From Escherichia coli O127:H6 str. E2348/69 (lineage in GTDB: Bacteria > Pseudomonadota > Gammaproteobacteria > Enterobacterales > Enterobacteriaceae): DNA of 64,000 nucleotides. Of this stretch, positions 35,217 to 41,204 are shown piece after piece. Numbering within the stretch: position 1 is the first letter of the stretch; every line of letters starts with the position of its first letter. The DNA lies in assembly GCF_000026545.1 (NCBI RefSeq), contig NC_011601.1. The stretch is one strand, 5' to 3'. A model generated the notes under the pieces. It made no database searches. It had not been told where the DNA came from and was given only the letters and a program-made list of their open reading frames with translations. A program made the translations under genes and the position numbers.

Positions 35217-35870
35217 CTTAAGAAGTCCGTCGGTCAGGGGGAGCATGAACTCTCCATCCTCACCGGAGTTGAGCTGGTTGTCAAACGTGGTGAGACCATT
35301 GCACTGGTGGGCGAGTCGGGATCGGGTAAGTCAACCTTGCTGGCGATCCTCGCAGGGCTGGATGACGGCAGCAGTGGCGAAGTGAGTCTGGTGGGACAAC
35401 CGCTACATAATATGGACGAAGAAGCGCGGGCAAAGTTGCGCGCGAAGCACGTAGGCTTTGTTTTTCAGTCATTTATGTTAATTCCTACCCTTAACGCGCT
35501 GGAAAACGTCGAGCTTCCGGCGCTGCTGCGCGGTGAGAGTAGCGCAGAAAGTCGTAACGGGGCGAAAGCGTTGCTCGAACAGTTAGGGCTGGGTAAACGT
35601 CTTGATCATCTTCCGGCACAGCTTTCTGGCGGCGAACAGCAACGAGTGGCGCTGGCGCGAGCCTTTAATGGTCGACCTGATGTGCTGTTTGCCGACGAGC
35701 CCACCGGCAACCTTGACCGCCAGACCGGCGATAAAATTGCCGACCTGCTGTTTTCCCTCAACCGTGAGCATGGCACCACGTTGATTATGGTGACCCACGA
35801 CCTGCAACTGGCGGCACGCTGCGACCGCTGCTTACGGCTGGTGAACGGGCAGTTGCAGGAGGAAGTATGA
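35184..35870 (+). CDS. ybbA: ABC transporter ATPase YbbA (LolD/MacB-type)
   Basis: 228 aa, with GESGSGKST, LSGGEQQRVALARA and LFADEPTGNLD. It is divergent from tesA and overlaps its 5' end. Confidence 0.93.
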   Translation: MPAENIVEVHHLKKSVGQGEHELSILTGVELVVKRGETIALVGESGSGKSTLLAILAGLDDGSSGEVSLVGQPLHNMDEEARAKLRAKHVGFVFQSFMLIPTLNALENVELPALLRGESSAESRNGAKALLEQLGLGKRLDHLPAQLSGGEQQRVALARAFNGRPDVLFADEPTGNLDRQTGDKIADLLFSLNREHGTTLIMVTHDLQLAARCDRCLRLVNGQLQEEV

Positions 35871-38281
35871 TTGCACGTTGGTTCTGGCGCGAATGGCGTT
35901 CGCCGTCGCTATTAATTGTCTGGCTGGCGCTAAGCCTGGCGGTGGCCTGCGTGCTGGCGCTGGGCAATATCAGCGATCGCATGGAGAAGGGCTTAAGCCA
36001 GCAAAGCCGGGAGTTTATGGCGGGCGATCGGGCGTTGCGCAGTTCGCGCGAAGTGCCGCAAGCATGGCTGGAGGAAGCGCAAAAGCGCGGCCTGAAAGTC
36101 GGCAAGCAGCTGACTTTCGCCACCATGACCTTTGCAGGCGACACGCCGCAACTGGCGAACGTCAAAGCGGTGGATGATATCTACCCGATGTATGGCGAGC
36201 TACAAACCAATCCCCCTGGCCTGAAACCGCAGGCGGGCAGCGTATTGCTGGCCCCACGCCTGATGGCACTGCTTAACCTGAAAACGGGCGACACCATTGA
36301 CGTGGGCGATGCCACCTTGCGGATTGCCGGAGAAGTGATTCAGGAACCGGATTCCGGTTTTAACCCCTTCCAGATGGCTCCGCGTCTGATGATGAATCTG
36401 GCGGATGTCGATAAAACCGGAGCCGTGCAGCCGGGGAGTCGGGTCACCTGGCGCTATAAATTCGGCGGCAGCGAGAACCAGCTCGACGGCTATGAGAAAT
36501 GGTTGTTACCCCAGCTTAAACCTGAACAACGCTGGTACGGTCTGGAACAGGACGAAGGCGCGCTGGGGCGATCGATAGAACGTTCGCAACAGTTCCTGCT
36601 GCTTTCGGCGCTTCTGACCTTGCTGCTGGCGGTGGCGGCGGTTGCGGTGGCGATGAATCATTACTGTCGCAGTCGCTACGACTTGGTGGCGATCCTCAAG
36701 ACGCTGGGGGCAGGGCGAGCGCAACTGCGTAAGTTAATCGTCGGTCAGTGGTTGATGGTGCTGGCGCTTTCAGCCGTTACCGGTGGGGCGATAGGCCTGT
36801 TGTTCGAAAACGTGTTGATGGTGCTGCTCAAGCCCGTGCTACCTGCCGCTTTACCTCCTGCCAGCCTCTGGCCGTGGCTGTGGGCGCTCGGCACCATGAC
36901 GGTTATTTCGCTGCTGGTGGGGCTACGACCATACCGCCTGTTGTTGGCAACGCAGCCTTTACGCGTATTACGTAATGATGTGGTAGCGAACGTCTGGCCG
37001 CTGAAGTTTTATCTGCCGATTGTCACCGTGGTGGTTGTGCTGCTGCTCGCCGGATTAATGGGTGGCAGTATGCTGCTCTGGGCGGTGCTGGCGGGCGCGG
37101 TAGTACTGGCTTTGCTGTGCGGTGTGCTGGGCTGGATGCTGCTGAATGTACTTCGCCGCATGACGCTGAAATCGCTACCTCTGCGCCTGGCGGTTAGCCG
37201 CCTGTTACGTCAGCCGTGGTCAACGTTAAGCCAGCTTTCGGCATTTTCGCTCTCCTTTATGCTGCTGGCACTGTTGCTGGTGTTGCGTGGCGATCTGCTC
37301 GACCGTTGGCAACAACAACTGCCGCCAGAAAGCCCGAACTACTTTTTAATCAACATCGCTACGGAACAGGTTACGCCGCTGAAAGCGTTTCTCGCGGAAC
37401 ATCAAATAGTCCCGGAATCGTTTTATCCGGTGGTGCGGGCGCGGTTGACGGCGATTAACGACAAGCCGACAGAAGGCAATGGAGATGAGGCGCTCAACCG
37501 CGAGCTGAATCTCACCTGGCAAAATACGCGGCCTGATCATAACCCGATCGTCGCCGGTAACTGGCCGCCAAAAGCGGATGAAGTGTCGATGGAAGAGGGG
37601 CTGGCGAAACGCTTAAACGTTGCCCTCGGCGATACCGTGACTTTTATGGGCGATACCCAGGAGTTCCGCGCTAAAGTGACCAGCCTGCGCAAAGTGGACT
37701 GGGAAAGTCTGCGGCCTAATTTCTATTTTATTTTCCCGGAAGGGGCATTAGACGGGCAACCGCAGAGCTGGCTTACCAGTTTCCGCTGGGAGAATGGCAA
37801 CGGCATGTTGACGCAACTCAACCGCCAGTTCCCGACCATTAGCCTGTTAGACATTGGCGCGATTTTAAAACAGGTCGGTCAGGTGCTGGAGCAGGTAAGT
37901 CGGGCGCTGGAAGTGATGGTGGTGCTGGTCACCGCCTGCGGCATGTTGCTGTTGCTGGCGCAGGTGCAGGTGGGAATGCGTCAGCGTCATCAGGAGCTGG
38001 TGGTGTGGCGCACACTTGGTGCGGGGAAAAAACTGCTGCGCACGACATTGTGGTGTGAGTTCGCCATGCTCGGGTTTGTATCCGGCCTGGTGGCCGCAAT
38101 TGGTGCGGAAACGGCACTGGCGGTACTGCAATCGAAAGTGTTTGATTTCCCGTGGGAGCCAGACTGGCGATTGTGGATTGTTCTGCCGTGCAGCGGTGCG
38201 CTACTGCTGTCGCTTTGCGGCGGCTGGCTGGGTGCGCGACTGCTTAAGGGTAAGGCGCTGTTCAGGCAGTTTGCGGGGTGA
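35867..38281 (+). CDS. ybbP: FtsX-like ABC permease YbbP
   Basis: 804 aa with two FtsX-type TM bundles; it overlaps the ybbA stop by 4 nt. Confidence 0.93.
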   Translation: MIARWFWREWRSPSLLIVWLALSLAVACVLALGNISDRMEKGLSQQSREFMAGDRALRSSREVPQAWLEEAQKRGLKVGKQLTFATMTFAGDTPQLANVKAVDDIYPMYGELQTNPPGLKPQAGSVLLAPRLMALLNLKTGDTIDVGDATLRIAGEVIQEPDSGFNPFQMAPRLMMNLADVDKTGAVQPGSRVTWRYKFGGSENQLDGYEKWLLPQLKPEQRWYGLEQDEGALGRSIERSQQFLLLSALLTLLLAVAAVAVAMNHYCRSRYDLVAILKTLGAGRAQLRKLIVGQWLMVLALSAVTGGAIGLLFENVLMVLLKPVLPAALPPASLWPWLWALGTMTVISLLVGLRPYRLLLATQPLRVLRNDVVANVWPLKFYLPIVTVVVVLLLAGLMGGSMLLWAVLAGAVVLALLCGVLGWMLLNVLRRMTLKSLPLRLAVSRLLRQPWSTLSQLSAFSLSFMLLALLLVLRGDLLDRWQQQLPPESPNYFLINIATEQVTPLKAFLAEHQIVPESFYPVVRARLTAINDKPTEGNGDEALNRELNLTWQNTRPDHNPIVAGNWPPKADEVSMEEGLAKRLNVALGDTVTFMGDTQEFRAKVTSLRKVDWESLRPNFYFIFPEGALDGQPQSWLTSFRWENGNGMLTQLNRQFPTISLLDIGAILKQVGQVLEQVSRALEVMVVLVTACGMLLLLAQVQVGMRQRHQELVVWRTLGAGKKLLRTTLWCEFAMLGFVSGLVAAIGAETALAVLQSKVFDFPWEPDWRLWIVLPCSGALLLSLCGGWLGARLLKGKALFRQFAG

Positions 38282-38297
38282 TGACAGGTGTTAGATT

Positions 38298-38395
<98 letters not shown>

Positions 38396-38426
38396 ATGAA
38401 CAGTGTGCATTTTGGCAATAAATATG

Positions 38427-38453
38427 AAACCAACTGTCATGTCGGTTTTTTTA
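38427..38453. repeat. Left copy of a 27-bp direct repeat AAACC(A/G)ACTGTCATGTCGGTTTTTTTA; it also forms a hairpin followed by T7 on the + strand
   Basis: 26 of 27 positions are identical to 40006-40032. The last 21 nt (38433-38453) are identical to 40012-40032. It could act as the ybbP terminator. Confidence 0.8.
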
Positions 38454-38498: not shown

Positions 38499-38582
38499 TT
38501 ATTCAATAAATTGACGGATCAGTTCTAGCAGCGCGATTAGCGCCTTAAGAACGATGAGAACTTTATCGAGAAAAGTTTTCAT
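38499..38582 (-). CDS. Candidate type I toxin: 27-aa hydrophobic peptide MKTFLDKVLIVLKALIALLELIRQFIE (DinQ/TisB-like)
   Basis: Hand-translated from ATG 38582 to TAA 38499. GGGAG SD lies 6 nt upstream. The peptide is predicted to be a single amphipathic helix. I recall DinQ as MIDKAIIVLGALIALLELIRFLLQLLN, which shares the ALIALLELIR core. The ORF is shorter than the ORF-track cutoff. Confidence 0.55.
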   Translation of the reverse strand: MKTFLDKVLIVLKALIALLELIRQFIE

Positions 38583-38654
38583 CCGTTGCTCCCTTAAGGG
38601 AGAAAGACAATCACAGCTTACCCTTACGTTGCCTGTAACTATGATTTTCTTCAT

Positions 38655-38670
38655 GTGCTAGATGAGGACT
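38655..38670. repeat. Left copy of a perfect 16-bp direct repeat TGCTAGATGAGGACTG (predicted sRNA target site in the peptide mRNA 5' UTR)
   Basis: Identical to 39943-39958. It lies 73-88 nt upstream of the peptide ATG on the opposite strand. Confidence 0.75.
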
Positions 38671-38865
38671 GCCTCTCTCCAAATTAGAGCACCAGAATCA
38701 GCACCACCTGTATCCTGACCAGGACTTAAAAGTACTTTTCCGCACTGCGGTAATCCCTTGAGGCAGTATCACTACTAGCGTCGGGATTGTATCGCCAACA
38801 TAGCTGTTGTGTAAGTTCACAGAGATATTGCAATTGCCTCCGGATAAGTAAGGGGAGATTGCACT

Positions 38866-39912
38866 ATGCAAATGCAGCATCTGATGGTTGGCTATCCTAA
38901 GTACTACCAAACGGCCGATTATGCGTTGAGGCTTTCAGTGATGGCTGATATAGCAACAATGAGAATGAAGGCTCTGCACTTCTGGGATAAACACGGTATT
39001 TCTGCAGCTTCTGAAGCCTTTGGCGTGTCCTGCCGCACGCTTTACTGGTGGCGTCAGTTACTGAACAAGGAAGGACCTGAGGGGCTAATCCCGCACAGTA
39101 AGGCACCTCTGGTGCGACGAAAAAAACACTGGCATCCCGATGTGCTGAAAGAGATTCGACGCCTCAGGACAGAGCTGCCGAACCTCGGTAAAGAGCAGAT
39201 TTTTGTTCGCCTGAAGCCCTGGTGCGAACAGCGCTATCTGGCCTGTCCGAGTGTTTCCACCATCGGCAGAATGATCGCTGCCGCACATGATAAAATGCGG
39301 ATGATACCTGTGCGTCTGGGATCGCGGGGGAAGGCACTGCTTGTCAAAAAGCGGTCTGCCAAACCCCGCAGGCCAAAGCACTACCGCCCGGTAAAGACAG
39401 GTGAGCTCATTGGGATGGACGCCATTGAGCTCAGAATGGGCGAACTGCGTCGCTATGTCATCACCATGATCGACGAATGCAGCAATTACGCGCTGGCGCT
39501 GGCTGTGCCGTCACTCAACAGTGATATCGTCAATCACTTCTTCAGCCGCGCAGCCCGGTTGTTCCCGGTCGGTATCAGCCAGATAATCACAGATAACGGA
39601 AAAGAGTTCCTGGGAAACTTCGACAAAACGCTGCAGGAAGCCGCTATCAAACACCTCTGGACCTATCCCTACACGCCAAAAATGAACGCTATCTGTGAAC
39701 GTTTTAACCGGACGTTAAGAGAGCAGTTTATTGAATTTAATGAGATTTTACTCTTTGAAGATCTGGCGCTATTTAACCAGAAGCTGGCGGAATATCTGGT
39801 GCTGTATAACAGCAAAAGACCCCACAAGGCGCTCGCACTAATGACGCCCGTGGAATATATTTTAAAAGAGAATAAAAATTGCAATATGTGGTGGACCCAT
39901 ACAGCTGTTTGA
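38866..39912 (+). CDS. DDE transposase/integrase-core (rve) protein with an N-terminal HTH; IS481-family-like single ORF
   Basis: 348 aa, with AGGGGAG SD 8 nt upstream. The N-terminal HTH is AFGVSCRTLYWWRQ. The catalytic-core pattern is GMDAIEL...ITDNGKEF...PKMNAICERFNRTLREQF (D, D, E with the typical spacing). Confidence 0.85.
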   Translation: MQMQHLMVGYPKYYQTADYALRLSVMADIATMRMKALHFWDKHGISAASEAFGVSCRTLYWWRQLLNKEGPEGLIPHSKAPLVRRKKHWHPDVLKEIRRLRTELPNLGKEQIFVRLKPWCEQRYLACPSVSTIGRMIAAAHDKMRMIPVRLGSRGKALLVKKRSAKPRRPKHYRPVKTGELIGMDAIELRMGELRRYVITMIDECSNYALALAVPSLNSDIVNHFFSRAARLFPVGISQIITDNGKEFLGNFDKTLQEAAIKHLWTYPYTPKMNAICERFNRTLREQFIEFNEILLFEDLALFNQKLAEYLVLYNSKRPHKALALMTPVEYILKENKNCNMWWTHTAV

Positions 39913-39937
39913 ATATGTAGGCATCCTGACTTATAAT
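39909..39937 (+). promoter_or_regulatory. Near-consensus sigma70 promoter TTGAAT-17 nt-TATAAT
   Basis: -35 at 39909-39914 (overlapping the transposase TGA stop), a 17-nt spacer, and a perfect -10 at 39932-39937. The predicted TSS is around 39944, at the start of the 16-nt repeat. Confidence 0.55.
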
Positions 39938-39943
39938 TCACTT

Positions 39944-40031
39944 GCTAGATGAGGACTGTTTCATTTCTGCCCGGAACCACCAAGTCTTGGGCGGAAAAAA
40001 TAAAAAAACCGACTGTCATGTCGGTTTTTTT
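39944..40031 (+). ncRNA. Candidate ~88-nt antitoxin sRNA whose 5' end (UGCUAGAUGAGGACUG) is complementary to the 5' UTR of the 27-codon ORF mRNA
   Basis: It is defined only by the upstream promoter, the 16-nt complementarity to 38655-38670, and the hairpin (AAAAAAACCGAC-TGTCAT-GTCGGTTTTTTT) with a T7 run at 40002-40031. I have no expression data. Confidence 0.4.
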
Positions 40032-40032
40032 A
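40006..40032. repeat. Right copy of the 27-bp direct repeat; a bidirectional hairpin terminator between the candidate sRNA and selU
   Basis: See 38427-38453. The A7/T7 arms flanking CCGAC/GTCGG give a U-run in both orientations. Confidence 0.8.
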
Positions 40033-40094
40033 TATCTGTATTCTGGTGCAACCATTCTGTTCTCACGACAATCGCCGTTTCAGAATACCGCCCA

Positions 40095-41204
<1,110 letters not shown>

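Follow-up and report, generated by a model that had tools for sequence, protein, structure and literature searches.

Why a transposase gene should lie exactly between a candidate toxin gene and its candidate small RNA (sRNA), and be bracketed there by a perfect 16-bp direct repeat, is the question raised by one locus of Escherichia coli O127:H6 str. E2348/69. The window analysed here is the whole 64,000-nt stretch of contig NC_011601.1 (assembly GCF_000026545.1) that contains it, and all coordinates refer to this window. From sequence comparison we hold it very probable that an ISKpn28-like insertion sequence (IS) inserted into a pre-existing DinQ/AgrB toxin-antitoxin (TA) locus, that the 16-mer is the pairing module of that locus, and that the insertion was oriented with respect to a promoter. 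The IS would have transposed into the chromosomal DinQ/AgrB-type locus between ybbP and mnmH.

The preliminary description of this DNA had proposed aligning the interval with E. coli genomes that lack the transposase, and the alignment defined the empty site: in strain AW1.7 the same toxin and sRNA are adjacent, with nothing in between (...catAGCTGTTtgaatatg..., with catAGCTGTTtgaat as the junction stretch). Aligned with it, the filled site reads ...catAGCTGTT, then GTGTAAG...CCCATACA, then a second GCTGTT followed by tgaatatg.... The inserted segment is 1101 bp long, made up either of a 1095-bp element and a 6-bp duplication, GCTGTT, or of 1096 bp and 5 bp. Among 5426 complete E. coli genomes the TA locus occurs in 1326, always on the chromosome and with no plasmid copies; it is uninterrupted in 1125, with toxin and sRNA adjacent and the 16-bp repeat intact, and filled by the IS in 5, which are E2348/69 and its relatives. 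The proposal that an IS had landed between the divergent promoters of a pre-existing TA pair is borne out by these 1125 uninterrupted and 5 filled loci. In about 200 genomes the TA locus is a variant that aligns, as two separate pieces, with 78% of the 441-bp query (333 bp in the record), implying that about 108 bp were deleted within the locus. The insertion itself has the following parts.

38866-39912, plus strand: transposase open reading frame (ORF), 348 aa; its last two codons fall within the target duplication and its stop within the host -35
38809-39903, plus strand: IS481-family IS, ISKpn28-like, 1095 bp; boundaries common to copies in other genomes, plasmids and metagenomes
38808-38835, plus strand: left inverted repeat (IRL), TGTGTAAGTTCACAGAGATATTGCAATT
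39877-39903, minus strand: right inverted repeat (IRR), reverse complement TGTATGGGTCCACCACATATTGCAATT; also encodes the C-terminal ...NMWWTHT
38803-38808: left copy of the target duplication, GCTGTT (GCTGT if T38808 belongs to the IS), from the empty and filled sites
39904-39909: right copy of the target duplication, GCTGTT, from the same comparison

The 348-aa product had been read as an IS481-like protein with a helix-turn-helix (HTH) and a D-D-E core in a single ORF, and the profile searches agree. Pfam recognizes HTH_28/HTH_32 and rve/rve_3 (the DDE core), with a catalytic triad of D185, D243 and E278 and 35 residues from the second D to the E. Against the NCBIfam model NF033577 (IS481 transposase) it scores 221.6 bits, where the cut-off is 224, with 283 of 284 model positions covered; the runner-up model, IS3, reaches 98 bits, and RefSeq names the product IS481 family transposase. 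Terminal inverted repeats, reported absent in the preliminary description, do exist, and the IRR had been missed because it lies inside the 3' end of the ORF, which was left out of that search. The repeats are imperfect and have TGT.T..GT.CAC...ATATTGCAATT in common, and both carry the 5'-TGT ends of IS481-type elements (IRL TGTGTAAGTTCAC..., counting T38808; IRR reverse complement TGTATGGGTCCAC...). The IRR is conserved in distant homologs, and the inverted repeat (IR) core of ISKpn28 is again ATATTGCAATT (PMC6101004). Read from T38808, the IS would be 1096 bp long with the ends TGT...ACA. Such ends, together with a short target duplication, are the rule of the IS481 family (bioRxiv 10.1101/2022.12.17.520857), and this rule favours a 1096-bp element with a 5-bp duplication. 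At the disputed position, 22 out of 23 different left junctions have a T. On these comparisons we take the element to be a real, active IS481-family insertion sequence.

IS481 itself duplicates NCTAGN targets, which is a property of IS481 and not of the whole family, and the CTAG within the 16-bp repeat had earlier been linked to this habit. That link is not upheld: the duplication here is GCTGT(T), other copies are flanked by CTGTGT, CACTCT, GCATAT, TCTCCT, GAGTAT and CACGCT, none of the duplications contains CTAG, and positions 1-5 are uninformative across sites. The 16-mer itself was ruled out as a target duplication or as IS ends; both of its copies are intact in the empty site, and it is therefore unrelated to the transposition event.

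The nature of the repeat emerges from the genes on either side of the IS.

38499-38582, minus strand: DinQ-family type I toxin ORF, 27 aa, MKTFLDKVLIVLKALIALLELIRQFIE (NCBIfam toxin_DinQ, NF041472)
38583-38779, minus strand: predicted 5' untranslated region (UTR) of the toxin mRNA, with the start at G38779 inferred by homology with K-12 dinQ
38656-38671, minus strand: repeat copy 1, reading CAGUCCUCAUCUAGCA on the toxin mRNA, the sRNA target; corresponds to the 'agrAB repeat' of dinQ (PMC3567139)
38786-38791, minus strand: predicted toxin promoter -10, TACAAT, the best minus-strand -10; native -35 displaced by the IS
39909-39937, plus strand: near-consensus sRNA promoter, -35 TTGAAT at 39909-39914, 17-bp spacer, -10 TATAAT at 39932-39937
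39944-40033, plus strand: AgrB-like antitoxin sRNA with its terminator at 40000-40033 (Rfam AgrB, RF02891)

The toxin ORF scores 38.4 bits against NF041472 (cut-off 30), is annotated dinQ by RefSeq, and has an identical protein accession in filled and empty sites. On the sRNA side, 39945-40033 matches the full-length Rfam model RF02891 at 53.6 bits (gathering score 40, E = 1e-7); alignment of TATAAT-tcactt-G here with TAGTAT-tgagct-G of K-12 agrB places the sRNA start at G39944, and the promoter has the same sequence in the empty site. In K-12 the dinQ +1 lies 194 nt before the start codon, with the GUG at +195 and the agrB site at +88-119 (PMC5066626). When this published +1 was mapped to K-12 and then to the present paralog, it put the toxin start near G38779. 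The toxin promoter candidate had previously been placed about 175 nt upstream of the transposase ATG, which is probably not correct, as dinQ homology points to about 38786-38815, touching the IS.

As first described, the perfect 16-bp direct repeat TGCTAGATGAGGACTG brackets the transposase gene, at 38656-38671 and 39943-39958 on the same strand; these are its only two copies in the 64 kb, and it extends to 22 nt at 91% identity (20/22), a shorter match than the 30 of 31 in K-12. Copy 2 supplies the first 15 nt of the sRNA, and the two copies are read from opposite strands in the toxin 5' UTR and the sRNA, making the RNAs complementary. The K-12 dinQ-agrAB locus has the same logic, in that its sRNAs are divergent from dinQ and begin with 31 nt that also occur within the dinQ 5' UTR (PMC3567139, PMC5066626). 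Comparison of the K-12 pair (GTTAGATAAGAACT...) with the present pair (GCTAGATGAGGACT...) revealed three substitutions that occur in both partners, which is the pattern expected of a pairing module. Judging from these sequences, what the 16-bp direct repeat provides is the segment through which the two RNAs of a DinQ/AgrB-type type I TA locus pair. Pairing between sRNA and UTR was judged by contiguous complementarity only; a full-length duplex prediction was discarded because it paired the RNAs unrealistically from end to end. The toxin mRNA is predicted to begin with GCUAGUAGUGAUACUG (38764-38779, minus strand), which repeats the 16-mer a third time, imperfectly and in inverted orientation, and resembles the sRNA 5' end, GCUAGAUGAGGACUG. 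In K-12 the dinQ mRNA 5' end likewise resembles agrB and competes for the same segment (PMC5066626), and by analogy GCUAGUAGUGAUACUG could pair with the sRNA target site in the manner of 'sequence 1' of dinQ.

Two further ideas about this locus and its K-12 relative were dropped. A search for a LexA operator with CTG and CAG half-sites found none in 38601-38830 or in the empty site and did recover the K-12 control (15/20 positions), and SOS control of the present DinQ paralog was rejected for lack of a LexA box. The notion that the K-12 dinQ and agrA promoters share a palindromic TTGCAA as their -35 was withdrawn after the published +1 had been mapped; the K-12 dinQ -10 is TATGAT, and the dinQ -35 lies about 22 bp from the agrA -35.

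The native promoters stand back to back, since the toxin -35 of the empty site (TATTCA/TTCAAA) and the sRNA -35 (TTGAAT) overlap on opposite strands. The insertion would have spared the sRNA promoter and moved the toxin -35 1.1 kb away, leaving the left end of the IS to provide a candidate replacement, either CTTACA at 18 bp or TACACA at 16 bp. Predicted scores of the toxin promoter are similar in the two states, 9.4 in the filled and 8.5 in the empty site. There is no terminator between the transposase stop and the sRNA, so that transposase transcripts should end at the sRNA terminator.

At its other end the IS abuts the -35 hexamer of the sRNA promoter, with the stop codon TGA (39910-39912) inside TTGAAT (39909-39914). 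The preliminary description had seen this overlap of stop codon and -35, and rightly so for the present locus; it had not recognized that the element does this systematically. The first five other copies all had a duplication with T as its last base and TG directly after it, and three of the five had a type I toxin as neighbour (the ldr/rdl array, hokD and the present locus). The 23-nt right end then served to collect copies in IMG/VR, GTDB genomes and metagenomes, which yielded 176 copies with 61 distinct right flanks. At the register 'last duplicated base + 2', TTG is found in 28 of the 61 flanks (1.3 expected, P about 1e-30), and TTG with TAnnnT after a 17-bp spacer in 14 (0.03 expected), rising to 19 when spacers of 16-18 bp are counted; other registers gave 0-2 such flanks and the opposite strand 1 in total. 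Scored with a sigma70 weight matrix, 34 of 61 right flanks exceed the 99th percentile of the background (0.6 expected) and 24 the 99.9th, and the present sRNA promoter is the best-scoring of the 61 target promoters at 14.6 bits. Left flanks showed no promoter signal at the junction (0/21 at registers 0-8, and 0-2 at more distant ones). In the logo of the 34 sites the hexamers appear as TTGA-- and TAnanT, with a 17-bp spacer in 25 and a G at -14 in 23; G-14, which is not in the matrix, is the position that sigma70 reads in an extended -10, and nothing informative is seen at the first five duplicated positions. Where both ends and an intact duplication were at hand, eight of nine sites were promoter-like.

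Wherever a check was possible, the targets turned out to be genuine promoters. The commonest site, accounting for 41 of the 176 copies, is the promoter beside hokD at an Rfam sok match; a sok match abuts the IS at L007 and L176 and an STnc100 match does so at L010 and L016, while at L004 the rdlD match starts at 2642, 7 nt after the IS-adjacent -10. The target at L005 is the cvi promoter, which contains a sequence that we presume to be a Fur box. At the cis-antisense loci, ldr/rdl and hok/sok, the IS lies 14-15 bp upstream of the toxin start codon, an arrangement that would cut the toxin ORF from its leader and spare the antitoxin promoter. Insertions of this kind would be harmless or favourable, and this probably raises their frequency.

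The register is shared by relatives of the element. ISKpn28-type copies occupy it at GAGTAT followed by TTGAAA-17-TAAATT and at CACGCT followed by TTGAAG-17-TATTCT. Six chromosomal homologs with 43-46% protein identity, from Acidithiobacillus caldus and several metagenome-assembled genomes (MAGs), keep the ends G(T/C)ATAAGTTCA...TGGAC(G/C)CATACA. Their left-flank 6-mer ends in T in all five that were read and matches the right copy in four (L179, L180, L182 and L183). Four of the six sit on clear promoters and two on weak ones, and the next downstream gene on the promoter strand is co-oriented in 6/6, with a small opposite-strand ORF call intervening at L183. The clear promoters are as follows.

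TTGAAC-17-TAATCT: homolog promoter upstream of trxA-rho
TTGACG-16-TATAAT: homolog promoter upstream of xseB
TTGACG-17-TACCCT: homolog promoter
TTGCCA-18-TATAAT: homolog promoter

Across these genomes the promoter register is a property of the clade, and not an E. coli peculiarity.

The same register governs where the transposase ends. The element has no stop codon of its own, and its frame continues from ...TGG TGG ACC CAT ACA through two codons of duplication into the flank. A TTGA-type -35, present at 21 of 34 sites, gives an immediate stop and a protein of 348 aa; otherwise the frame runs on. The overlap of stop and -35 at the present locus thus arises because the element takes its TGA from the TTGA of the -35. 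The missing stop codon is also the reason why homologous ORFs range from 347 to 573 aa, some of them fused to host Pfam domains, and why RefSeq labels copies 'integrase core domain-containing protein, incomplete, missing C-terminus'. In automatic annotation the transposase is called a pseudogene or else prolonged into host genes, creating chimeric proteins of up to 573 aa.

These observations suggest how the element may choose its sites. On this reading the insertion at the present locus was not random: the IS lineage inserts one way only, and its right end comes to lie either exactly on the first T of a sigma70-type -35 or 5-6 bp upstream of it. The host promoter stays intact and fires away from the element, in the direction in which the transposase gene reads, an outcome akin to a 'safe haven'. 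The transposase might capture promoters on which RNA polymerase holoenzyme already sits, by way of sigma70 region 4 or the alpha subunit's C-terminal domain (alpha-CTD), or through a bend at -35 to -40, and would cut at about -41/-40 and -36/-35. That sigma70 holoenzyme guides this IS481 clade, comprising ISKpn28, the E. coli element and the homologs of ~43% identity in Acidithiobacillus and marine MAGs, is a tentative proposal which the target sequences make possible. Tethering would be the simplest mechanism because the informative positions are those read by sigma70 and stay constant while the IR core changes between hosts.

A number of points weigh against the reading as a whole or limit its parts. 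The evidence for the locus and for targeting is entirely computational, and RNA polymerase tethering is something we infer; the transposase could read the DNA itself. At the locus, a 5-bp and a 6-bp duplication are not separable, the disputed base being T in both IS and target, and pairing amounts to 15-16 nt compared with 30-31 in K-12. Among the collected sites, 27 of the 61 flanks do not look like promoters. In many of them the duplication does not match, as would be expected if copies had recombined or contigs had been joined in assembly; site L075, which has an intact duplication and yet is not promoter-like, is a true exception. The 61 sites are not fully independent, as several are paralogous sok-type promoters, and metagenome contigs are included. 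The matrix frequencies are approximate and taken from general knowledge, but they do not enter into the plain motif counts; because the matrix was also used to pick the sites of the logo, G-14 and the uninformative duplication are the only logo features that it did not shape. Finally, no description of promoter targeting or of a missing stop codon in IS481/ISKpn28 elements was found in the full-text literature, a scope that leaves out ISfinder and TnPedia, where the targeting may already stand. The papers on ISKpn28 consulted here give its size, IRs, mgrB insertion and intergenic bias, and no promoter targeting (PMC5343135, PMC6101004).

Two other accounts of the promoter association have to be set beside guidance by the holoenzyme. 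The targeting could be real and the HTH domains of the transposase could read promoter DNA without RNA polymerase, a possibility that draws on the -35-like motif inside the IR to which such transposases bind (TTGCAA in the present IS, TTGGCA in distant homologs) and on TTG being the strongest target signal. The conserved positions are nevertheless those that sigma70 reads, namely TTGA, the 17-bp spacer, G-14 and T-12 A-11 T-7; beyond TTG the target is unlike the IR, in which nothing matches a -10, and it remains constant across hosts while the IR core shifts from TTGCAAT to TTGGCAC. We consider direct reading unlikely. The association might instead reflect selection after insertion by a transposase that recognizes at most T/TG. 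Natural copies are survivors, ISKpn28 is intergenic at 59% by distinct sites and 81% by total sites (Adams et al., PMC5343135), and insertions in mgrB at +91 exist (PMC6101004). Selection is, however, unable to fix a one-base register, and neutral intergenic TTG sites outside -35 elements should then dominate; what is seen is a full -35, 17-bp spacer and -10 at one register in 34/61 flanks, with G-14 enriched, and an absolute orientation. This makes selection alone a decidedly improbable source of the pattern.

Two proposals of the preliminary description concern the origin of the locus and fare worse. The adjacency of the three genes and the 16-bp repeats bracketing the transposase gene had suggested that toxin, transposase and sRNA travel as one mobile unit, with the TA pair as an addiction cassette. 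However, the TA locus stands at the same site without the IS in 1125 genomes and with it in 5, never on a plasmid, and the IS is found elsewhere, without the toxin, in 1222 genomes, its own IRs and duplications excluding the toxin; joint travel is extremely improbable. The transposase had also been suspected of being a domesticated or decayed relic related to K-12 ylbG, and the single copy at the present locus and the many other copies marked partial by RefSeq would fit such a view. Against it, the ORF is intact with its DDE triad, identical (100%) copies with fresh duplications of their own occur in unrelated strains, the 'partial' labels are due to the ORF having no stop codon of its own, and ylbG resembles the 348-aa protein at 33% identity over a 43-aa HTH stretch only. 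A relic is therefore very improbable, and transposition of an active IS into an existing TA locus is the reading that we retain.

The distribution of the element fits a mobile IS with its own relatives. The 1094-bp IS core was found at 1693 places in 1222 genomes (911 chromosomal and 782 plasmid), with up to 38 copies per genome; in E2348/69, whose copy number had been marked for counting, it occupies 4 places. At least 99% identity is shown by 146 records, among them copies 100% identical over 1094 bp in unrelated strains. Most E. coli copies, 1118 records at 90-95% identity, belong to an older 93-94% variant that occupies fixed positions, between galF and yegH on the chromosome and on ColV-type plasmids. 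At galF-yegH the duplication is degenerate (TTGCCT/TTGCAT), and the right end adjoins no promoter. PLSDB holds 2377 plasmid records, mostly from Klebsiella, where a 75%-identical relative is annotated ISKpn28; neither RefSeq nor PLSDB annotation gives the present element a specific IS name. Several ISKpn28-type copies (L164, L146 and L079) have a common left flank (...CACGCT) and differing right flanks, a sign that copies recombined with one another or that the assembly was joined through the repeat. The 23-nt right end is also matched exactly in MAGs assigned to Candidatus Spongiihabitans, to an Oxydemutatoraceae bacterium and to a gammaproteobacterium, and several of these matches have promoter-like flanks. 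A 566-bp 'Streptomyces malaysiensis' contig with a right-end match and a flank like those of sok-type promoters (...aagaggcTA...) looks like contamination.

The local order is ybbA, ybbP, repetitive extragenic palindromic (REP) sequences, the toxin ORF (minus strand), the 348-aa ORF (plus strand), the sRNA gene (plus strand), mnmH/selU and allS.

35867-38281, plus strand: ybbP
40095-41189, minus strand: mnmH/selU

In K-12 the toxin/sRNA pair is absent from the ybbP-selU interval, which is taken up instead by rhsD and ybbC, by the pseudogenes ylbH/ybbD/ylbI and by ylbG, an HTH fragment; the interval is thus a variable region across E. coli. Palindromes of the REP or bacterial interspersed mosaic element (BIME) type lie at 38290-38402, between ybbP and the toxin locus; the stretch matches Rfam ES036 at 40.3 bits, above the gathering score, and naRNA4 below it, and the inclusion of these palindromes in a BLAST query produced matches at 180,000 places. 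Just past the 3' end of the toxin gene, 38414-38453 on the plus strand is a second copy, 83% identical to 39993-40032, of the sequence that ends the sRNA gene, terminator included (...AACCAACTGTCATGTCGGTTTTTTTA). This copy may be what is left of a second agr-like gene, K-12 having both agrA and agrB, or may act as terminator of ybbP.

The locus itself is ordinary, an IS in a known kind of TA pair with a 16-bp repeat as its pairing module. Both the IS481-family/ISKpn28-group element and the DinQ/AgrB-family locus are of known kinds, and what is new, in that we could not find it described, is the promoter-targeting habit. If true, insertion that is base-precise and oriented at sigma70 promoters of a generic kind would mean that a bacterial transposon can choose its targets in a new way; were guidance by the holoenzyme also true, no earlier bacterial transposon would have been tethered to the machinery of transcription initiation, and the element would parallel yeast Ty3/Ty1. 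The habit would explain the recurrence of the element at strong constitutive antitoxin sRNA promoters (AgrB-like, RdlD and Sok), and each copy, pointing at a -35/-10, would be a natural marker of an active promoter. The lack of its own stop codon explains a systematic annotation error, hundreds of copies being listed as 'partial, missing C-terminus' or fused to host ORFs. Promoters would be uncoupled from upstream regulatory DNA and not destroyed, which is relevant to ISKpn28-bearing resistance plasmids.

Compared with known systems, the element is closest to ISKpn28 of Klebsiella pneumoniae, with which it shares ~80% protein and ~75% DNA identity, a length of about 1095 bp, the termini GTGTAAGTTCAC...GGACCCATACA and the IR core ATATTGCAATT; it differs as a distinct isoform or species that is unnamed in RefSeq. 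With IS481/IS1002 of Bordetella, the type members of the family, it has in common a single-ORF HTH and DDE transposase, TGT...ACA ends and a short duplication, but unlike IS481 its specificity lies in the adjacent promoter, and the first five duplication positions are without preference. The host locus resembles K-12 dinQ-agrAB in its 27-aa hydrophobic toxin, long 5' UTR and divergent sRNA of ~85-90 nt, in an sRNA 5' end that repeats a toxin 5' UTR segment, and in an mRNA 5' end that mimics the sRNA. In contrast to dinQ-agrAB, which lies between gor and arsR with two sRNAs, it lies between ybbP and mnmH with one sRNA copy, has no LexA box, and has back-to-back promoters with overlapping -35 hexamers.

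Oriented insertion beside a functional site that stays intact is also the habit of Tn7 at attTn7 and of yeast Ty3/Ty1 at Pol III genes. Among IS elements, the ISAba32 subgroup inserts at XerCD sites in an oriented and base-precise way that leaves the functional site intact, a 'safe haven' (bioRxiv 10.1101/2022.12.17.520857). Unlike ISAba32, Tn7 and Ty elements, the present IS would have as its target a generic sigma70 promoter, of which there are thousands of potential sites per genome, and it takes its stop codon from that target. In IS-inactivated K-12 hok/sok loci, IS150 and IS186 were reportedly seen near hokA, hokC and hokE by Pedersen and Gerdes in 1999. The locus described here is like these in that insertion sequences recur at type I toxin loci, and unlike them in that recurrence would be explained by the element's choice of the antitoxin promoter, and not only by selection against the toxin.

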